Of a DNA stretch of 64,000 bases, positions 53,404-64,000 are shown piece after piece. The stretch comes from an uncultured Thermofilaceae archaeon (GTDB taxonomy: Archaea; Thermoproteota; Thermoprotei; Thermofilales; B69-G16). Below the pieces are notes generated by a model. It made no database searches, was not told the DNA's origin, and worked only from the letters and a program-made list of their open reading frames with translations. The first letter of the stretch is position 1. Each line of letters opens with the position of its first letter. Both the position numbers and the translations under genes were made by a program. Where the stretch lies: the NCBI GenBank assembly GCA_964501905.1, contig CAZCTW010000002.1, positions 67,821 through 131,820 of the forward strand. Reading direction: 5' to 3'.

Positions 53404-56400
53404 TTAGTTTTGATTCCCTGTAGTATGCGAATGCTTTAAAGCTAAATGAAGCTTGTATATGGTTTCTAGGTTCTCCTCTATGTACTTGCCCAGTTTTTTC
53501 TGTAGATAACGTGACGAAGCAATCCATTTCGAATAAGGTTTATCACGTATGTACCTGCGCGTATTCTCCCACTCCATCCTTACATCCTGTAGGTGTATGG
53601 TCCTGTTCCACCCCAACGCGCTCTCAACCTCCTCTAGCGGAAGTCTATCCACCTCGAAGATTTTCACCGCCTCCTCCTTCACGTCGACGACCTTTCCCAT
53701 ATGTTTTAATCCTATCAGTAAAGCGGCGAGCGATTTCAACTCGTTATTCATCAAAGTTCTGGTTAAATCGTTTAAGCCGTAAACCGCTAAGGTAAAGTCT
53801 TTATCTAGAAACTCTCTAATCCTATCTTCGACCTCTCTAACCTCCCTCCCGATGATGTAAAACTCTTTAAAGGATTCTCGAACTAAAAACTTCTCGCCAT
53901 CGTACAAGCCAACCGCTATAAGCTCCACCCTTTCCTCCTCATCCAAAGGCAGGCTTAGGGCGTCCAGCGCGGCTACCTTTAAGGCTCTCGACGGCTTAGG
54001 CACATATATCTCCTTATCTCTAATTTTCAAAGCTATCTTCTCTCTAAGTAGCAGGTAGCTTAATGCCTTCAAAGCGGCTTGTTTAGCTATGTCCCACCTC
54101 AATCCGCTGGCGGCGAGCTCGAGGTGGGCGTCCTCGTCTACCGCCTGTAATAGTACTTCAGTCAACTCGTCGGGCTCGAAGCTTTCCACTTTCTTCATGA
54201 CGTTGAGCCAGTCTAGTTTTTCAAGGAGCCCGGCGCTTTCAGGCTCGTGGAGTATTATCAACTTCTTCTCGCCAACTTTGGCTATATCGTACATTATGGT
54301 CTCGAAGGCTATCCGGTACTCGACCCTGAGGACGACCATAACTAGCGCAAGCCCTATACGCAACCACGTGAGATCCTCGTCGGGCTCTAACTCGACAGAT
54401 ATCCCGTACGTGTAATCGTTGTATTTGCCATAGGTTCCCGTGGGGACTTCGATGACTTTTAAATCCCTCAGCACTAGAGTTTTCCCATCCACGGGTATTA
54501 GCTTGCTCTTTCTCCCCCGCAGTATCCAGTGTACTCTGTTCGGTATTTTAGTGTAGATACCAAAGCCTCTTAACGGAGGATGGACGACGCATATAACCTC
54601 CGAGTGCAATCTACCCGCTACGTAATCTCCGAAAATGTTCGGCTCCTCCCCCCATCTGTATTTAGCTTTCCTATACTCTTCATAGGCGTAGGCTAATGCG
54701 TCGTTCCCCCAGATAACCCGCTCGCTCAGAGGCTCCTCAACCACAGCTGTGACAACTCTCCCCGACTTGCCCCCAAGTCTGTGAGATGTCACTATGGCAT
54801 CTTCAGTGTAGTCTATACAACCGGGCTGAAATTTCTCGACTAAGTCGCAGAAGGATATATCCTCCAGGTACTGTTGCTCGTCATATCTAGCTTTCACTCT
54901 TTTAATGCCGAACGGGGGTGAGAACTCGTAGAAGTTTAAGTTAGTCCACGCGCTCTTCCCCCTCCTAGTCAGTTCCCCCTCTTTAACTAAACCAAGCTTC
55001 TCCAAGAACTTATACTCCTCCTTAGACAAGTGCTTCCTCATCGTGGGAGATACGAACTTATAGAGGGATTCGAAGAGCAGGGAGTACTTGTTATCGGGGT
55101 TTACGATCGCGTGCTCTAGAGGTAGCTCTAGCCAAGATTTAAAGACGGATACTCCCCGCGTCAACAATTCTCTATCCCATCTAAGCACGGGGAAGATAAT
55201 GCTTTCGGTAAATTCTATCTCCTTCCTCCGACCCTTCCTCCCCTCCCTCTGGTGGTACTCTCTAACATCATCAGGCAGACCTACGTGGACGATACGCACG
55301 ACAGTCCCTATATCTATCCCTTGAGCAAGTGTTCTAGGAGTGAAAATCAATTTTACACGCCCCTCTCTAGCTCCCTGCTCAATAAGCTCTCGTAGAGCTT
55401 TAGACACTAAGTGGTGGTGAGTTGCTATCATATCCGCGCGGTTTCGGGGCAGCCTATACTTCAATTTCCTAGCGAGTTCCTCGGCTTTAGCTATACTCCT
55501 CGTGAATACGAGCGTTACGCCCTCATCGTCTAAGTATTTCTCCAAGATTTCGGTGGGGTCGAGCTCTACTCTAGGAACTTCTAATCCCAAGGCTTCGAGA
55601 ACTTCTAGTACTTTGTAGAAGTTCTCCTTGAATGAGTTGAAATCCTCCAGCGAGTCGATGATATCCTTCCCTACTCCCGGAGCCGAAGATAGGATGTCTC
55701 TATACTTTCTAACTATATCCCATATACGCCTGAGGTTTTTACCTAGGATTATATAGGTTTTGTTAGGTACTTTGAAAGCTTTCCCGTAGATAATAGCGGT
55801 TTCCTTACCGTTTATCTCCGTTAAGAAAGCCCCTAACTCCTTTGGATTCCCTAGAGTCGCGGTTAGAATAGCTATCTGAAAGTTAACCGGGGATAATACC
55901 CTCAATATCTTAATCATCGATAACAGTAAAGCTATCTCCCTCGGAGAGTAGAAATCTAGTTCATCTACAACTAATAGTTGGAATTTCGGTATAAGTTTGG
56001 ACAGTACGGCGTTTCTGCTACCTACGGCGTGCCTTTTGAGATCCATGAGGAGAAAAGCCGGGTTTGTTATCAGTATCTGTAAATTTCCTATGTAATCCCT
56101 AAGTCTGCTTCCCTTAACCCCCTTCCTGTAGAATTCCTCTCTTCTCTTGGCATCTATAACGTCGACTTGAATCCCCACGACACGGGCGTAACTCTTAATT
56201 CTATTGATTTGGTCGTTAGCAAGGGCTAGCGTCGGGTAAAGCACTAGAGCTTTTACGCCCTTCTTAATCGCGTAAATTAACCAAGCCTCTGTCTTGCCAG
56301 AGCCTGTTCCAGATCTAAGTATTACGTTTTTGCCGTTTAGCAGAGCCTTATATGCCTCGTACTGGTGCTTATAGAGTTTTTTACCTGCGAGCCTTCCAGC

Positions 56401-56577
56401 GTGTCCATCGGCTTTTTCGAATTCCGGGATTAAATCGCTGAAAGTGAGCTCGGCTAGATCGGGCTCTTCCCCTCTTTCTCCGAAGGCGTAGTAGTCGTAA
56501 CCTAGATTCTCCAGCACGGTTAAGCTATCTATAGGCACTTTTACACCGTAAGCTATTTCGCGTTGAGCGTTATTCAA
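53404..56577 (-). CDS. Large SF2 DEAD/DEAH-box helicase, YprA/MrfA/Hrq1-like core with a ~580-aa C-terminal region (DUF1998-like but lacking Cys)
   Basis: Motif I SGTGSGKTEAW, Ia LYPTLALANDQ, II VVDELD, III LTATL, V FTPRTLAQGIDIG and VI HQREGRKGRR. The tail contains the block YRIAFETIMYDI...ILHEPESAGLLEKL. Confidence 0.85.
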   Translation of the reverse strand: MNNAQREIAYGVKVPIDSLTVLENLGYDYYAFGERGEEPDLAELTFSDLIPEFEKADGHAGRLAGKKLYKHQYEAYKALLNGKNVILRSGTGSGKTEAWLIYAIKKGVKALVLYPTLALANDQINRIKSYARVVGIQVDVIDAKRREEFYRKGVKGSRLRDYIGNLQILITNPAFLLMDLKRHAVGSRNAVLSKLIPKFQLLVVDELDFYSPREIALLLSMIKILRVLSPVNFQIAILTATLGNPKELGAFLTEINGKETAIIYGKAFKVPNKTYIILGKNLRRIWDIVRKYRDILSSAPGVGKDIIDSLEDFNSFKENFYKVLEVLEALGLEVPRVELDPTEILEKYLDDEGVTLVFTRSIAKAEELARKLKYRLPRNRADMIATHHHLVSKALRELIEQGAREGRVKLIFTPRTLAQGIDIGTVVRIVHVGLPDDVREYHQREGRKGRRKEIEFTESIIFPVLRWDRELLTRGVSVFKSWLELPLEHAIVNPDNKYSLLFESLYKFVSPTMRKHLSKEEYKFLEKLGLVKEGELTRRGKSAWTNLNFYEFSPPFGIKRVKARYDEQQYLEDISFCDLVEKFQPGCIDYTEDAIVTSHRLGGKSGRVVTAVVEEPLSERVIWGNDALAYAYEEYRKAKYRWGEEPNIFGDYVAGRLHSEVICVVHPPLRGFGIYTKIPNRVHWILRGRKSKLIPVDGKTLVLRDLKVIEVPTGTYGKYNDYTYGISVELEPDEDLTWLRIGLALVMVVLRVEYRIAFETIMYDIAKVGEKKLIILHEPESAGLLEKLDWLNVMKKVESFEPDELTEVLLQAVDEDAHLELAASGLRWDIAKQAALKALSYLLLREKIALKIRDKEIYVPKPSRALKVAALDALSLPLDEEERVELIAVGLYDGEKFLVRESFKEFYIIGREVREVEDRIREFLDKDFTLAVYGLNDLTRTLMNNELKSLAALLIGLKHMGKVVDVKEEAVKIFEVDRLPLEEVESALGWNRTIHLQDVRMEWENTRRYIRDKPYSKWIASSRYLQKKLGKYIEENLETIYKLHLALKHSHTTGNQN

Positions 56578-57935: not shown

Positions 57936-58012
57936 TAAACTATTAAATGTTGCCTTAAGCCTGTAATCTCATGCAAATATATTTTAAAATCAAAATCTAA
58001 ATATAAACGCTG

Positions 58013-58064
58013 ATGATGAGACTGTTCCCAAACCGAGCGGATGAGGCTTCTCCTCCTTTGCTGA
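58013..58064 (+). ncRNA. Candidate C/D box sRNA in the leader of the HerA-like gene
   Basis: C box AUGAUGA (58013-19), a 13-nt guide, D' CCGA (58033-36), a 4-nt spacer, C' AUGAGGC (58041-47, 5/7 match), a 13-nt guide UUCUCCUCCUUUG and D box CUGA (58061-64). An AT-rich TATA-like stretch at 57977-57990 lies about 25 nt upstream. Confidence 0.35.
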
Positions 58065-58085
58065 CTTTAAGCTCGAGGCGGAAAA

Positions 58086-59285
58086 ATGCAGGTTAAATCT
58101 AAACGCGGAGATGAAGTTAGACTATACTGCGACTTGGAAGAGAGAGTGGAAATAGGCGAACTCATAGAAATCTCAGAGGAAGATAGGAGCGTTGTAGTTC
58201 AAATATTAGATATAGAACAGGACTCCGAGCTCATCCTATCTGGGGAGAAAGGGAGAGAGGTTTTAGCTAAAATAAGACTTGAAGGCATAGGCGGAGAGAG
58301 CCGCGTGTACAAAGAGTGGAGCGGATGGTTCCCCTCCACACCCGTGCTGGTGAAAAAGGTAAGTGCAAGCAGGATCCTGGCGCCAAACATTTGGCAGGAA
58401 AGTCTCCCTCTCGGCTATGAGAGAAACAGCGAGGAACTTTTCCAAGTATCTCTCCAGAACCTTAGAACATTAAACATTGTAGCAGGATTTCGCTCTGAGA
58501 ACCTACTAGCTACGTTAGCCGCTATTCTTTGCCTTAAGGGTTACAGGGTGATAGTATTCGATAGTACTGGGCGTTTCGCTAAGTTAATAAGGAGAAGCTT
58601 TAGAGAAAGGTTCCGGCGCTTTACAGTCGGAGACGAGATAAAACTTCCCATAGCCGAGCTAGGAGGAGTGTGGAGGGATTTTCTAAGTATTTACGGGTGG
58701 ACTGAGCCTCTAATCACCATGTTCGATAGCGTTTATAAAAGCTTTAAAAAATCGAAATCTCTATCCTTTAAGAGTATAGTTAGAGAACTATCCCTTAGAA
58801 AAGATACGGAGCTATTCGTGGATTTCCTCTGCTCACTAAATGAAGTACTAACTGATGAACACGACGAAATCAATCTGGGCAGGCATGTTATATTAGATCT
58901 TTCGAAGTGTGATAGCCCGTCCGCGCTGCTTACAATTCTGCATCGTCTTATCAAACAAGACTACAACTTTTTACTGATCAATAATATTCAAGCTCTTCAC
59001 GTACCGGATTTAGAGAAGCTAGCCCGATTACTAATATCTAAAAAAGACGCAGTGTTTATCGATATAGGCGTCGACACAGAGGCGAGCGTACTGCTCCGCT
59101 ACGCTGTAAACTTATTCTTTACAGGTCCTTACAATAGGCTTTTAGAAGATCTATTCCCCCTGCTAGAGAATGAAGAACCGCTACTACGCAAGCTATCCTC
59201 CGAGGAATTCCTAATCAACGGGTTTTTAACCAAGAATACACCTGTAATACTGACTATGCTCAGACCGGAAGACTTCCTAGGATGA
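58086..59285 (+). CDS. HerA/FtsK-like protein with inactivated P-loop (pseudo-ATPase)
   Basis: N-terminal HAS-barrel-like segment (GELIEISEEDRSVVVQILDI). The region aligned to the window's own HerA Walker A ([36 protein letters not shown]) reads LNIVAGFRSENLLATLAAILCLKGYRVIVFDST. The Walker B position (FIFVEEAH) reads FLLINNIQALH. Confidence 0.6.
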   Translation: MQVKSKRGDEVRLYCDLEERVEIGELIEISEEDRSVVVQILDIEQDSELILSGEKGREVLAKIRLEGIGGESRVYKEWSGWFPSTPVLVKKVSASRILAPNIWQESLPLGYERNSEELFQVSLQNLRTLNIVAGFRSENLLATLAAILCLKGYRVIVFDSTGRFAKLIRRSFRERFRRFTVGDEIKLPIAELGGVWRDFLSIYGWTEPLITMFDSVYKSFKKSKSLSFKSIVRELSLRKDTELFVDFLCSLNEVLTDEHDEINLGRHVILDLSKCDSPSALLTILHRLIKQDYNFLLINNIQALHVPDLEKLARLLISKKDAVFIDIGVDTEASVLLRYAVNLFFTGPYNRLLEDLFPLLENEEPLLRKLSSEEFLINGFLTKNTPVILTMLRPEDFLG

Positions 59286-60463
59286 TAAACGTGTTGTTTT
59301 CCAGGTTATACGTAGGGACTTCAGGTTGGGATTACGAAGATTGGATAGGCCCTTTTTATAGCAGTGAGAAACACTTATTCTTCCAATACTCTGAAGTATT
59401 CAATACTGTCGAAATAAACTCGACGTTCTACTCTTATCCATCAGCTAACTTCATCAAAGGATTAGCTAGAGTAGCCCCTCTCGGTTTTAAGTTTTCAGCT
59501 AAAATACCTAGAGAAATAACCCACAAGAAGAAGCTAAACCCCTCTCTTGGAATTGAAAACGATTTAAAACGTTTCCTGGAGATAATGCACCCCTTAAAAG
59601 CTAGCGGAAAGCTCGGAGCATTCCTCGTCCAACTCCCCCCTTTAGCTAGAAAAGACCTACACCACTTCGAAGATTTCTTAAACATATTACCAACAGAGAA
59701 GTACAGGTTTGCTGTAGAATTTAGACATGAGTCCTGGCTCTGCGAGCAAATTTACTCCCTCTTGGAGAAGTACAACGTCGCCTTCACAATCGTGGACGAA
59801 CCGCTTCTACCCCCCGTGATCAAAGTTACCGCGGGCTTCGCCTATATAAGGTGGCATGGGAGAGGCAAAAGACCCTGGTATTACTACATGTATTCCATCA
59901 AAGAACTCGAGGAGTGGAAGCCAAGAGTTAAAAAAGTCATGGAGGAAACAGGCATAGTTTTCGGATATTTCAATAACCATTTCAGGGGGTATGCTCCCGC
60001 AAACGCTCTTCAAATGCTAAACCTCCTCGGTATAATCAATAGAAACCAGCGTAGAAAACTAAAGGAGATAGAATACTATTTCAACAGGAGAATAGCGGAA
60101 CTAATTAAGGAAAAAGCTAGGAAAATCCAACCCGAAAAAGTGAGCCTGGAGGATCTGCTCCTACTCTTTTTAGACAAAAAACGCTTAGAAAGAGGTAGAG
60201 AAATCCCCGACTCACAGGTTAAAATACTCGAGGCTAGCGACTCATTAATAAAGGCAAGAGTGAAAAACTATACGATAATTATAGATTTCAAAAATAAAAC
60301 AATTCTACACGACTGCGCGGACTGGGAGAAACGCTGCACTTCAATGCAATTCTGCAAACATATGGCAAAGCTATTCCTAACCATTCCGGGAAAACTTGCA
60401 CGAGAAACTCTGGCAAAAATAGCAGGCGAACTAGACGAATGGGAATTTAAAACAAAAACTTAG
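59282..60463 (+). CDS. DUF72 (YecE/UPF0759 TIM-barrel) protein fused to a C-terminal SWIM-type zinc finger
   Basis: LYVGTSGWDYEDWIGPFY is the DUF72 N-terminal signature. The C-terminal LHDCADWEKRCTSMQFCKHMAKL fits the SWIM pattern (C/H-x-C-xn-C-x-H). Its ATG overlaps the stop of the upstream gene (ATGA). Confidence 0.8.
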   Translation: MINVLFSRLYVGTSGWDYEDWIGPFYSSEKHLFFQYSEVFNTVEINSTFYSYPSANFIKGLARVAPLGFKFSAKIPREITHKKKLNPSLGIENDLKRFLEIMHPLKASGKLGAFLVQLPPLARKDLHHFEDFLNILPTEKYRFAVEFRHESWLCEQIYSLLEKYNVAFTIVDEPLLPPVIKVTAGFAYIRWHGRGKRPWYYYMYSIKELEEWKPRVKKVMEETGIVFGYFNNHFRGYAPANALQMLNLLGIINRNQRRKLKEIEYYFNRRIAELIKEKARKIQPEKVSLEDLLLLFLDKKRLERGREIPDSQVKILEASDSLIKARVKNYTIIIDFKNKTILHDCADWEKRCTSMQFCKHMAKLFLTIPGKLARETLAKIAGELDEWEFKTKT

Positions 60464-60492
60464 GCCAAACCCATGAACCGAACTCGCCCTCG

Positions 60493-61242
60493 TCAGTAAG
60501 GCTTTATTATCCTCGCCTTAACTCTGTACAAGGTTCCCGCGTAATCATCTACCCACATGTGCTCAAACAACGCGGCATACTCTCTCAGAACCTCCTCCTC
60601 GCTCGACACAAAACCCCCCTTAACCTTCATCTTAACTATATAGCCGAAGAAAATCCTCGAATCTAAAACCCCCAAAAGCAACGGCCTTGCAGGCTCTATA
60701 TACCTTATATAGCCTGGCGGCTCAACAGGCGAACTTATAAAAACCTCGTCGCTCGTAGCCACTCTCACGTCAACCCCTCCTCCACTCGCATGCTCAATAC
60801 TATTCACGGCTTTCCTACTCAACAGCGAAAAATTAGGCACATAAAGCCAAATCCTAACCTTACAGATTCCAAGATTCCTCTCCAACTCCCGCTTTAGCGA
60901 TGCTCCATCAACAAAGTAGAACGTGCCTCCAATCCTCTTACCCGCCAGTAAACCGTTTATCTGCCCTAGGACATCCTCTAAGCGGCGAACTCTCTCCTTA
61001 ACCAACTCCTCGAAAATCCTCTCATCCGTAGTTATAGTATACCGCGTAGGCTTACCCTCAACTTTTAACACCAAGCCTTGAACAACTAACTCCCTAAGCG
61101 TAGTATAAAGGTGAGGTCTAGGAATCCCCGTCATCTCAACTAGCTCATCCACAGTCAATGGTTCATGCTCAGCCAAAATAGCTAAAACTTTAGCCTTTCT
61201 CGGGGAAAAACCCAAGTCGATTAAACCCTCCTCCACCCCCAT
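60493..61242 (-). CDS. TrmB-family transcriptional regulator
   Basis: LGFSPRKAKVLAILAEHEPLTVDELVEMTGIPRPHLYTTLRELVVQGLV is the TrmB N-terminal wHTH. It is divergent from fbp. Confidence 0.8.
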   Translation of the reverse strand: MGVEEGLIDLGFSPRKAKVLAILAEHEPLTVDELVEMTGIPRPHLYTTLRELVVQGLVLKVEGKPTRYTITTDERIFEELVKERVRRLEDVLGQINGLLAGKRIGGTFYFVDGASLKRELERNLGICKVRIWLYVPNFSLLSRKAVNSIEHASGGGVDVRVATSDEVFISSPVEPPGYIRYIEPARPLLLGVLDSRIFFGYIVKMKVKGGFVSSEEEVLREYAALFEHMWVDDYAGTLYRVKARIIKPY

Positions 61243-61263
61243 ATCTTAAACCTCGCTTTAAAT

Positions 61264-61284
61264 TACTACCGAATAGTAGTACTA
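61264..61284. promoter_or_regulatory. Nested dyad symmetry (TACTAC-N6-GTAGTA, overlapping TAGTACTA) in the trmB-fbp divergent intergenic region; candidate operator
   Basis: Read directly from aattactaccgaatagtagtactaac. It lies between the TATA-like tttaaa (trmB side) and aaatatata at about 61295 (fbp side). Confidence 0.35.
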
Positions 61285-61335
61285 ACACCAGGTAGAAATA
61301 TATACTCCCTCCGCATTGCAGGCATCGGTGAAAAA

Positions 61336-62478
61336 ATGAAGATCACCGTAAGCCTTATAAAAGCCGACATAGGCGGACTAGTAGGACACAGCACAGTCCA
61401 CCCCAAACAAATAGAATTAGCCAAAAAGAAACTGCAAGAAGCTAAAGAAACCGGGCTACTAATCGATTACTACGTCTTTAACGTAGGTGACGACGTCCAA
61501 CTCCTAATGACCCACACCAAAGGAGAAAGCAATCCTGAAATACACAAACTAGCCTGGGACACTTTCGTCGAAATAACAGAAAAGGTAAGCAAACCCCTAA
61601 AACTATACGGAGCCGGACAAGACCTACTAGCCGAAGCCTTCAGCGGAAACGTTAGAGGAATGGGACCTGGAGTAGCCGAAATGGAAATAGAAGAAAGAAA
61701 AAGCGAACCAATCATAGTATTCGCTGCTGACAAAACAGCACCCTCGGCCTGGAACTTCCCACTCTACAAGATGTTCGCAGACCCATTTAACACCGCAGGA
61801 TTAGTTATTGACCCTAGTATGCACGATGGATTCAAATTCGAAGTCATGGATACTCTCGAAGACAAAGTAGTAATCTTAAACGCCCCAGAAGAACTCTACG
61901 ACCTCCTAGCCCTAATAGGCTCCTATGAAAGATACGTAATAAGGAGAGTATGGAGAAAGAAAGACAACTTAATCGCCGCCGTAGCCAGCGTAACCAGGCT
62001 AAGCCTAATCGCTGGCAGATACGTAGGAAAAGATGATCCAGTACTAATAGTCAGAGCCCAGCACGGACTTCCCGCAGTAGGAGAAATACTAGAAGCATTC
62101 GCCTTCCCACACCTCGTCGAGGGTTGGATGCGCGGCTCGCACACTGGACCATTAATGCCGGTTGGTTTAAAGGATGCTCGGTGTACTAGGTTTGATGGTC
62201 CGCCTAGGGTTGTTAGCTTGGGTTTCCAGTTACATGACGGTATTCTTGAGGGACCAAGGGATATGTTCGATGATCCGGCGTTTGATTATACTAGGAGGAT
62301 TGCTCAGGAGATTGCGGATTATATTAGGAGGCATGGACCGTTTGAGCCTCATAGGCTGCCAAGCGCTGAAATGGAATATACTACGTTGCCTGGCGTTTTA
62401 GAGAAGTTAAAGGATAGGTTTGTTCCCGCTGAGAAGATAGAGGCGAAGATTAAGAAAAGTGGCGAGGTTTACGAATAA
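61336..62478 (+). CDS. fbp: Fructose-1,6-bisphosphate aldolase/phosphatase (class V FBPase)
   Basis: MKITVSLIKADIGG...HGLPAVGE...MRGSHTGPLMPV are blocks of the archaeal bifunctional FBPA/P. Length is 380 aa. Confidence 0.95.
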   Translation: MKITVSLIKADIGGLVGHSTVHPKQIELAKKKLQEAKETGLLIDYYVFNVGDDVQLLMTHTKGESNPEIHKLAWDTFVEITEKVSKPLKLYGAGQDLLAEAFSGNVRGMGPGVAEMEIEERKSEPIIVFAADKTAPSAWNFPLYKMFADPFNTAGLVIDPSMHDGFKFEVMDTLEDKVVILNAPEELYDLLALIGSYERYVIRRVWRKKDNLIAAVASVTRLSLIAGRYVGKDDPVLIVRAQHGLPAVGEILEAFAFPHLVEGWMRGSHTGPLMPVGLKDARCTRFDGPPRVVSLGFQLHDGILEGPRDMFDDPAFDYTRRIAQEIADYIRRHGPFEPHRLPSAEMEYTTLPGVLEKLKDRFVPAEKIEAKIKKSGEVYE

Positions 62479-62486
62479 AGCCCAAA

Positions 62487-62506
62487 TTTTTCTTTCTTTA
62501 TTTTTT
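62487..62506 (+). terminator. Oligo-T tract (tttttctttctttatttttt) 9 nt after the fbp stop; archaeal intrinsic terminator candidate
   Basis: T-runs read directly downstream of the TAA at 62476-62478. Confidence 0.5.
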
Positions 62507-62846
62507 ATAATGTTTTGAAGATCTGGGCGGTCTCTCATTCTCAAACTAGGGGATTTTCGAGTTTGAAATAGGAATTACCTGAGGATTATACTATCAGGTT
62601 TATGGCGAAGCAACCCGACACATTTTTTGTGTTGATAATTAATGAACAATTTACGGGACTTGTTAAGAGCACTATGATATGGTAGTTTGAAGAAGTAAGA
62701 GGCTTTGATTGCAGAGTATTTGATTGATGAAAAACATAATTTTAGATATTATTTGGTTACTTTAATGAAACTGGGTTGGATTAATGAGTTTAATAGTTAC
62801 AAAGTGTTTAGATAAGGTTATATTTTAGTTAGCGTTTTGGTTTATT

Positions 62847-63965
62847 ATGTTTGCGAAAACAGTGTACTCTAAGCGCGTAGAGTCTCTTTTTTCGAAGTTG
62901 GAGATTGAGGGTGTTGAGGCCGTTGTTTTAACGAATCTCTATAATAGCTTTTACTTTACTGGTTTTGACTATGCGCTGGCTACTGTTTTGATTAAGGCCG
63001 CCGAGCCCGTGGTTCTTGTTCCTAGGTTGGAGTATTTCAGGGCGAAGAACGAGATTGTTTATGGGGAAGTGATAGGGGTTAGCTCCTTTGAAGCTGAGAC
63101 TGGCCCCTATGAGAGGGTGTTTGTTGGGAAGACTTGGGATTTGGTTAGGAATGTTTTGAGCGAGTACGGGGTACGCGGTAAAGTAGGAGTAGATAAATCC
63201 GGTCTCAGAGTGGATGATTACAATAGACTGATGAAGGCTTTAGGCTCTGAGCCCGTGGACGTTACTAAAAGCGTGACTAGTTTAAGAGCTATAAAGTCCG
63301 AAGAGGAAGTCGAGGCTATTAGGAAGGCTATAGGAATTGCGGAGAAGGCTATGAAAAGAGCTCTGGATTGCCTCGAGAAGGGAGTTACTGAGGAAGAGAT
63401 TGCCGCCGAGATTGACAGGGTTTTCAGGCTTAATCACGCAGACCGCTCCTTCAACACTATAGTGGCCTTCGGGGAGAACGCGGCTTATCCCCACGCTAAG
63501 CCTGGGAGTAGAGAGTTGAAGAGTGGGGATTTAGTTGTTATAGATTTAGGAGCTAAAGTGGATGGCTACTGTAGCGATATAACTAGGACTTTTGTTTGTG
63601 AAAAGGCTTCGGAGAAACAAAAGAGGATTTTTAACGCTGTTTTAAAGGCTCAACGCGCCGCTATCGAATCCGTTAAATCGGGGGAGAAGGCTAAAGATGT
63701 AGATAAGGTGGCTAGGGACGTTTTAAGAGAGTACGGACTAGCCGCCTATTTTAACCACGGTTTAGGTCATGGTGTTGGAATCGAGATACATGAGCAGCCG
63801 ACTTTAAATCCAGCAAGTAATGACGTACTGCTGAACGGGATGGTGGTTACAGTAGAGCCAGGGGCTTACTTAGCGGGCTATGGAGGAGTTAGGATAGAAG
63901 ATGTGGTGCTGGTAGTGGAAGGAGGATGTGAGGTACTGACCAGTTTTGAGCGCGTATTTCTCTAA
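62847..63965 (+). CDS. Xaa-Pro dipeptidase / aminopeptidase P family (M24B)
   Basis: Pita-bread metal ligands are DLGAKVDGYCSDITRT, HGLGHGVGIEIHE, VEPG and RIED. Length is 372 aa. Confidence 0.9.
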   Translation: MFAKTVYSKRVESLFSKLEIEGVEAVVLTNLYNSFYFTGFDYALATVLIKAAEPVVLVPRLEYFRAKNEIVYGEVIGVSSFEAETGPYERVFVGKTWDLVRNVLSEYGVRGKVGVDKSGLRVDDYNRLMKALGSEPVDVTKSVTSLRAIKSEEEVEAIRKAIGIAEKAMKRALDCLEKGVTEEEIAAEIDRVFRLNHADRSFNTIVAFGENAAYPHAKPGSRELKSGDLVVIDLGAKVDGYCSDITRTFVCEKASEKQKRIFNAVLKAQRAAIESVKSGEKAKDVDKVARDVLREYGLAAYFNHGLGHGVGIEIHEQPTLNPASNDVLLNGMVVTVEPGAYLAGYGGVRIEDVVLVVEGGCEVLTSFERVFL

Positions 63966-64000
63966 TAGTTGTTTTCATCTTATACATAGGCGGAAGTATG

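Follow-up and report, generated by a model that had tools for sequence, protein, structure and literature searches.

An abrupt strand-composition switch inside the fbp gene of an uncultured Thermofilaceae archaeon

The locus and its composition switch

The window considered here is a stretch of 64,000 nucleotides from an uncultured Thermofilaceae archaeon (assembly GCA_964501905.1, contig CAZCTW010000002.1, positions 67,821 to 131,820 of the forward strand), and close to its right end lies fbp, the gene for a class V fructose-1,6-bisphosphate aldolase/phosphatase. Inside this gene the base composition of the two DNA strands inverts: to the left, the top strand is rich in A and C and the bottom strand is rich in the keto bases G and T, whereas to the right it is the top strand that is G+T-rich. 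A first-pass annotation of the sequence had called attention to an abrupt polarity switch within fbp, and our measurements confirm it as a genuine feature, stronger than first described. The skewed zone covers about 9 kb in total and is roughly symmetric about the switch. Within the window, the arms of the zone and the genes that they cover are the following.

58000 to 62117: left arm; top strand A+C-rich, bottom strand keto-rich
58086 to 59285, plus strand: gene for a 399-residue protein with no Pfam match, in the tail of the left arm
59282 to 60463, plus strand: DUF72 gene, in the outer left arm
60493 to 61242, minus strand: gene for a TrmB-family transcription regulator (PF01978)
61336 to 62478, plus strand: fbp, class V fructose-1,6-bisphosphate aldolase/phosphatase (PF01950)
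62118 to 62157, best estimate 62121: switch point, in the fbp codons for the conserved stretch HLVEGWMRGSHTGPLMP
62158 to 64000: right arm; top strand G+T-rich
62479 to 62846: spacer between fbp and the M24 gene, 368 bp, 31% G+C (A 109, T 145, G 77, C 37)
62847 to 63965, plus strand: M24 (Xaa-Pro-type) peptidase gene, in the right arm

The asymmetry was measured as GT3top, the G+T content of third codon positions read on the top strand for every gene, because this removes most of the protein-coding constraint and puts the genes of both strands on one scale. The background GT3top is 0.513 ± 0.061 (range 0.32–0.68; 173 windows of 100 codons), and the genes in the first 58 kb have individual values of 0.43–0.62, the exception being one doubtful open reading frame (ORF) at 0.35. 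At the feature, the extremes for 100 codons are 0.21 (z = −5) and 0.78 (z = +4.4), and the step between adjacent windows is 0.64; it amounts to about 7.9 background standard deviations (SD) and is in clear excess of the background maximum of 0.34. The fbp ORF is intact and encodes 380 amino acids; GT3top stays at 0.15–0.2 over its first 780 nt and then jumps to 0.75–0.88. In counts, keto and amino third positions within fbp stand at 36:215 before the switch and at 86:28 after it (Fisher P = 4e-30).

A two-state likelihood scan placed the maximum-likelihood change point at 62121, which is nt 786 of the gene, with a support interval of 62118–62157 at 2 log-likelihood (lnL) units and with states of 0.19 on the left and 0.74 on the right; a wider change-point scan gained 91 lnL units over a model with no step. 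The window-wide minima of cumulative GC skew and of cumulative keto skew (G+T minus A+C) fall at 62115 and 62113, respectively, inside the 62.1–62.8 kb where the first-pass annotation had supposed that an extremum might be found. No other raw G+T step in 1.7 Mb of compared loci (SD 0.034) is as large as the +0.213 at 62119. The two base counts that had been made by hand were exact on recount, with A50 C32 G21 T17 at 61501–61620 (G+T 0.317) and G40 T39 A22 C19 at 62161–62280 (G+T 0.658), and every one of the synonymous flips that had been listed for Arg, Asp, Leu and Gly was found in fbp; the codon flips across the switch are AGA to AGG, GAC to GAT, GGA to GGT, CTA to TTR, GAA to GAG, and GTA or GTC to GTT.

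From the switch outward the bias decays to baseline over ~4.2 kb leftward and ~4.5–5 kb rightward. In the left arm, GT3top is 0.17–0.21 within 900 bp of the switch, 0.28–0.30 at 0.9–1.8 kb and 0.37–0.38 at 1.8–3.2 kb, followed by a tail of 0.45 at 3.2–4.2 kb and then the baseline of 0.52. In the right arm it is 0.75–0.88 over the first ~1 kb and ~0.6 out to ~4.5 kb, and has come down to 0.46 by ~67 kb. The extension of this arm past the window end was read, together with the PhoU gene, from two other assemblies of the same strain (L002 and L169), in which Endo_dU has a GT3top of 0.62, the minus-strand PhoU gene 0.67 and the IF-2B gene 0.56. The right side had been described as G/T-rich up to the window end; it is G/T-rich, but the bias is not constant and fades both ways.

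The bias tracks the strand rather than the gene, as had been proposed, because the minus-strand genes on both sides obey the sign of the strand: the TrmB gene on the left has a GT3 of 0.72 in its own sense, equal to a GT3top of 0.28, and PhoU on the right is keto-rich on the top strand, while the plus-strand DUF72 gene in the left arm has a GT3top of 0.37. The gene for the 399-residue protein, in the tail of this arm, is at 0.43. In the M24 gene GT3 is 0.63 overall and 0.82 at the 5′ end, and G+T is also raised at first codon positions, to 0.62. Nor does the bias follow gene transcription: read in their own sense, TrmB, M24 and fbp beyond the switch are G+T-rich, and the 5′ part of fbp, DUF72 and the gene of the 399-residue protein are A+C-rich.

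Direction of change, strain variants and relatives

Relatives within the Thermofilaceae were gathered through fbp homology, and the nearest to the window at species level is L003 (JALURF01). Compared with L003, the top strand of the left arm shows 28 G→A changes against 6 A→G and 27 T→C against 10 C→T; in the right arm, again on the top strand, A→G stands at 15 against 5 and C→T at 12 against 3, and transversions are roughly balanced. One strand on each side is driven toward T and G by C→T together with A→G, the bottom strand on the left and the top strand on the right, and these directional counts bear out the earlier suggestion that the two kinds of change accumulate on one strand. The four-fold sites of fbp have the same character, with A 50%, C 36%, T 12% and G 3% in the left part and the complementary T 51%, G 24%, A 13% and C 11% in the right part; on the strand that would be the exposed one, third and four-fold sites hold about T 50%, G 24–36%, A 12% and C 3–11%. 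First and second codon positions are shifted in the same direction relative to L003 (TrmB 29 versus 50 and DUF72 44 versus 64; in the right arm M24 61 versus 44 and Endo_dU 19 versus 10), which indicates that the pressure is old enough to have altered proteins.

The pattern has the marks of deamination in single-stranded DNA, namely that C→T and A→G are both enriched on a single strand while transversions hardly change, and that the bias forms a gradient with distance. In hydrolytic deamination, C→T is expected to exceed A→G far more strongly than is seen here, and the share of A→G, being too high for hydrolytic rates, argues for a contribution from a polymerase or primase. A polymerase bias toward G·T mispairs may even be the real source, contrary to an explanation by deamination.

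Variation at strain level can be followed in two haplotypes, L169 (ENA ERZ584659) and L170 (JGI 3300014887). All 11 strain single-nucleotide polymorphisms (SNPs) are transitions, and 8 of the 11 lie within ~1.2 kb of the switch.

62568, 62596, 62612, 62620 and 62698: differences in the spacer, top-strand A in the window versus G in L169, within 130 bp
60487, 61668, 61677 and 63253, and past the window 65345 and 65592: other strain differences, transitions

Near the switch, the SNPs on the right side comprise five top-strand A/G differences and one C/T, and the two in the left part of fbp are top-strand T→C when polarised, weakly, by L003. The A/G cluster in the spacer could reflect a strand-coordinated single event, or else a young A-rich insertion that is rapidly losing A to A→G changes. 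The spacer is probably young, since it is A-rich (109 of its 368 bases) and mostly absent from the sister clade, and A→G would dominate in it because a young spacer is far from compositional equilibrium. The strain SNPs are consistent with a process that is ongoing.

In the fbp tree, two clades of uncultured Thermofilaceae have the feature. The sister clade of the window (L003, L083 and L084) carries a weak version, in which the switch lies at about fbp nt 475–500. The second clade consists of L005 (CAZFWY01), L006 (JALURH01, contig JALURH010000042) and L089; the switch of L005 and L006 is at fbp nt ~1010–1030, L005 (nt ~1010) having short arms and L006 a GT3top of 0.08–0.25 over 4 kb leftward, including its minus-strand TrmB gene, and a switch at nt ~1026. 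The arm of L006 (7000–11030) is stronger and longer, extends over genes for a thymidylate kinase and a methyltransferase and over fbp, and breaks off sharply ~80 nt short of the fbp stop codon. Neighbouring genes differ between the affected clades, and fbp is the sole gene common to all affected loci. The fbp-locus profiles of L004/L090, L085–L088, L007/L099 and L008–L010 lack the feature.

Synteny has broken repeatedly on the right of fbp in these genomes: across 13 loci there are 8 kinds of right flank, versus 4 on the left. The 3′ junction of the gene is also an insertion site. The downstream spacer is ~92 bp in L003 (L003 11141–11232) and L083, and 368 bp of non-coding DNA in the window, ~270 bp more; only the last ~40 bp of the window's spacer have a counterpart in the sister clade; in L084 the junction is ~730 bp and includes an extra small PspC-like ORF (L084 11141–11840).

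Some further observations concern the genes of the region. The ORF of 399 residues (58086–59285) is 63% identical and syntenic in L003 and has a 4-nt overlap with the start of the DUF72 gene. The Endo_dU gene (PF01949; window-equivalent 63998–64576, L002 7187–7765) lies in the right arm, 2 kb from the switch, and to judge by its Pfam name the protein would be an endonuclease whose target is deoxyuridine, which cytosine deamination produces; this is possibly coincidental, as is possibly the presence of an Lhr-like DEAD-box helicase of 1057 aa at 53404–56577. About two-thirds of the genes in the window are on the minus strand, co-oriented with a fork travelling left from the switch, and GTG or TTG is the first in-frame start codon of many window ORFs. 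The second-largest raw step in the 1.7-Mb scan belongs to an island of ~800 bp in a Thermoproteaceae locus (L035 14037–14834), with a top-strand G+T of 0.61 versus 0.43–0.45 on the flanks; per-gene GT3 is only mildly shifted there, and the island is probably gene-specific.

Explanations for the asymmetry

The chance that the switch reflects an assembly chimera, a sequencing-damage artefact or gene-specific codon-usage selection is practically negligible. The source is a metagenome assembly, and a chimeric joint had been raised as a possibility in the first-pass annotation, but the junction is carried by contigs from five sample accessions (ENA ERZ27247980, ENA ERZ584659, Logan SRR7051322, Logan SRR7051321 and JGI 3300014887), and all ORFs are intact; two of the five assemblies differ from the window by SNPs (11 and 4) and therefore represent separate populations. 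As for codon usage, fbp is probably highly expressed, yet its GT3 is ~0.5 in unskewed relatives, and selection on codons is ruled out because the bias flips within a single gene, fbp, which shows both forms of it, and because genes on the two strands are biased oppositely in their own sense. Scarcely more credible is a recombination mosaic or foreign integration, also put forward at the outset, in which donors of unlike composition were joined within the conserved fbp. The sharpness of the junction (≤40 bp) and its place in the region's most conserved gene would suit such an event, as would the variable right flank of fbp across the family and switch positions that vary by lineage, as from independent crossovers. 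However, residues 1–262 and 263–366 of the protein give an identical ranking of relatives, with the L003 clade nearest for both parts (95% and 89–90%, respectively), and third-position divergence from L003 is 45–51% in both arms and in control genes; these shared nearest relatives and the equal divergence on both sides tell against a mosaic. In addition, L003 shares the gene order of the whole region, radical-SAM through IF-2B; the spacer is neither a displaced nor a decayed copy of the fbp 3′ end; and scans of the neighbourhood found no mobile-element genes. A mosaic would also leave unexplained why both sides peak at the junction and fade outward, and from where donors with a GT3 of 0.15 or 0.85 irrespective of gene orientation would have come.

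Strand geometry narrows the choice further. The observed sign derives from outward 5′→3′ synthesis, be it of leading strands, of break- or nick-primed DNA or of divergent R-loops, whereas a replication terminus, fork stalling and head-on transcription conflict each predict the opposite polarity, and so does deamination of the resected 3′ overhangs at a break; these candidates were rejected.

Among the explanations that have the right sign, we tentatively favour a fixed position where initiation recurs in both directions and leaves long-lived displaced strands; its simplest identity would be an origin or initiation zone. We would rate this reading at somewhat below an even chance. DNA synthesis would start repeatedly, in both directions, from a fixed point at ~62.12–62.16 kb; the strand peeled off from its 5′ toward its 3′ end, the top strand on the right and the bottom strand on the left, would stay single-stranded or be copied with low fidelity, and at hyperthermophilic temperature the exposed strand would gather C→T and A→G changes. 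Because purifying selection preserves the proteins, these changes would be mostly synonymous and weaker in amino acids, and because the chance of exposure drops with distance, two symmetric arms of ~4–5 kb would result; the sharp centre and symmetric arms fit a single point source acting both ways. The mode could be mitochondrion-like: leading strands would set out from one definite point, while over the first few kb the lagging strand would be made late or abortively. In this Thermofilaceae lineage the origin or initiation zone would be active; in others it would fire less strongly or not at all. An origin is thus the leading candidate for the site, and we infer the initiation of DNA synthesis as its cause. 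A bolder version, which we regard as doubtful, sees here the near-nucleotide footprint of a non-textbook replication start, placed inside a conserved metabolic gene, without an adjacent Orc1/Cdc6 or a recognisable origin recognition box (ORB), and leaving kilobases single-stranded; such a start may use a delayed lagging strand, an abortive “D-loop” mode, or long low-fidelity primase or polymerase tracts.

When the locus is compared with what is expected of an origin, the replication-origin reading of the first-pass annotation holds in part. The polarity is of the origin type, with the top strand A+C-rich on the left and G+T-rich on the right and a cumulative-skew minimum at the switch, and the asymmetry of transitions agrees with it; on the other side, the skew is local and there is no initiator gene, ORB or intergenic AT-rich centre. 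The points that weigh against an origin are considerable. No orc1/cdc6 or whiP domain was found in the ORFs scanned with Pfam from ~38 kb to the window end, and a search for these genes just past 64 kb, where they had been thought worth seeking, came up empty over the next 5.6 kb in the same strain (L169) and within 10 kb rightward in the syntenic L003. A Walker-A motif regular expression, the only screen applied to ORFs left of ~38 kb, gave no Orc1-like ATPase among ORFs of at least 150 aa in the window and close relatives. The Sulfolobus-type mini-ORB has 6 matches (with up to 2 mismatches) in 64 kb versus 3.5 expected, none of them paired near the switch, and the 64 kb contain no tRNA gene and no Rfam family at the gathering threshold. 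The switch itself lies in conserved coding sequence with a local G+C of 52%, and the nearest AT-rich spacer (31% GC) begins 360 bp to the right and is mostly missing in the sister clade. There is no skew on the scale of a replichore, GT3top being 0.51 over the other 58 kb with none beyond ~5 kb. Among the relatives, the position of the switch shifts by hundreds of bp between lineages, L006 has a left arm and no right arm, and fbp of the cultured Thermofilum pendens (~174 kb of CP000505) has no skew. Canonical orc1 loci (L163–L167) were obtained as a control through homologues of Pyrobaculum aerophilum Cdc6 (sequence verified against 1FNN), and the orc1-adjacent long loci L163 and L164, from other Thermoproteota, show no comparable local skew; this control is weak, because the L164 genome is distant (TYW3 39% identical) and L163 shares no comparable gene.

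Some of these points allow of an answer. According to a review, only one of the four origins of Pyrobaculum calidifontis that were mapped by marker frequency adjoins cdc6 (PMC4009838), and since the other three lack an adjacent cdc6 a missing initiator gene does not disqualify the site. A lineage-specific ORB, distinct from the Sulfolobus-type consensus, may be present. The right flank of L006 has no homologue among all loci compared, and its recent replacement could explain the absent right arm.

Two other mechanisms would produce the same polarity. Divergent untranslated transcription from an internal, roughly palindromic fbp promoter, with the non-template strands displaced by R-loops and deaminated, would do so by firing leftward, antisense to the 5′ part of fbp and into TrmB, as well as rightward. 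We consider this unlikely. A palindromic TATA-like TTTAAA, the only TATA-like hexamer there, does occur at 62166–62171, ~25 bp from the change-point interval, and in L003 and L083 a TTTAAA at fbp nt 540 is close to the switch of those loci; but no good transcription factor B recognition element (BRE) stands beside the hexamer, L084, L005 and L006 have no TATA-like hexamer at the switch, and unskewed relatives have TTTAAA at nt 496. Two independent promoters would readily give unequal arms, including the one-sided arm of L006, whereas a symmetric decay over 4–5 kb requires very long unterminated transcripts. Moreover, the 55 genes surveyed, with sense GT3 of 0.40–0.65, display no transcription-linked keto skew, which means that the R-loop RNA would need an effect far above that of any mRNA, and the 5′ part of fbp, DUF72 and the gene of the 399-residue protein, all on the plus strand on the left, are skewed against their own transcription. 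Somewhat less unlikely, though still improbable, is a hot spot other than an origin, from which nick- or break-primed, low-fidelity and strand-displacing synthesis runs outward from the 3′ part of fbp; candidate routes are fill-in after resection, break-induced replication, and rolling-circle or transfer-type displacement, the made or displaced strand gaining G and T. Outward 5′→3′ synthesis gives the right sign and, we infer, a distribution of tract lengths would give decay on the scale of kilobases. The model also suits the repeated synteny breaks and insertions that the family shows at this site, and the higher density of SNPs around the switch, where A/G differences on one strand crowd together at 62568–62698; the shifting switch positions and the one-sided L006 are likewise easier to accommodate. 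Yet, as overhang deamination has the wrong sign, polymerase error would have to dominate over damage; no endonuclease, relaxase, Rep or mobile-element gene was found nearby, and the switch shows no hairpin (z = +0.9) and no meaningful direct or inverted repeats. Synonymous divergence between the two clades is saturated, and that both should retain a purposeless fragile site at the same gene is less likely than that they retain a functional element.

Likeness to known systems and significance

In bacteria and at some archaeal origins, the leading strand is G+T-rich and the cumulative GC-skew minimum lies at oriC. The fbp switch resembles such origin skews in its sign, in the minimum at the switch, in the sharpness of the step and in the irrelevance of gene orientation. 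Known origin skews, however, extend over whole replichores and amount to a few percent to ~20% at third positions, whereas here GT3 goes from 0.15 to 0.85 and the skew reaches only ~4–5 kb each way, from a point within a gene and without a nearby initiator or ORB. Another likeness is to vertebrate mitochondria, in which the heavy strand gathers C→T and A→G while it is displaced, in a gradient with the time spent single-stranded. The fbp zone has the same signature at a comparable magnitude, the gradient with distance and the leakage into amino acids; unlike mitochondria, it belongs to a cellular chromosome, has two opposed arms from one point on a kilobase scale, and has a displaced strand that is putative. 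The origins of Pyrobaculum calidifontis (Thermoproteales) offer a comparison within the same phylum, where origins are multiple and adjacency to orc1/cdc6 is not required (PMC4009838). Those origins are intergenic and next to tRNA genes, whereas the centre of the present zone is in coding sequence with no tRNA in 64 kb, and no local extreme skew has been reported for them in the literature searched.

Local asymmetries attributed to other processes are also instructive. At mammalian CpG islands, divergent promoters have a GC skew associated with R-loops, which is like the fbp zone in being a local asymmetry that flips at a start point, fades over about a kilobase and is attributed to the displaced non-template strand; the CpG-island skew, however, follows annotated transcription, whereas here three genes are skewed against their own. 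In yeast and in cancer, strand-coordinated mutation clusters flank double-strand breaks or accompany break-induced replication, and the likeness there is in same-strand transitions that switch strand at a point, with the A/G SNP cluster of the spacer as a parallel. Break clusters that arise via resection have the opposite polarity and are single somatic events, in contrast to the fixed, inherited and equilibrium-level composition described here.

Archaeal chromosomes as a rule show only weak strand asymmetry, which is difficult to interpret, and the origins of uncultured archaea cannot be mapped experimentally. In the literature searched, including a 2026 survey of archaeal skews, we found no description of a local, sign-switching skew zone of mitochondrial strength in an archaeal chromosome. 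The fbp locus presents, on a cellular chromosome, a local asymmetry that equals that of animal mitochondria in strength, with a centre located to within ~40 bp and inheritance across species. Should it be the product of R-loops or of a break hot spot, it would still be an unusually clean, heritable and site-anchored hypermutation zone in a prokaryote. If, as we tentatively favour, it marks an initiation site, start sites could be located from sequence, and their gain and loss followed in metagenomes, through steps in third-position keto skew. Such a site would also be a sign that initiation in hyperthermophiles involves long-lived single-stranded DNA or synthesis of low fidelity, and it would provide a natural experiment on how mutation pressure reshapes the codons and amino acids of essential genes.

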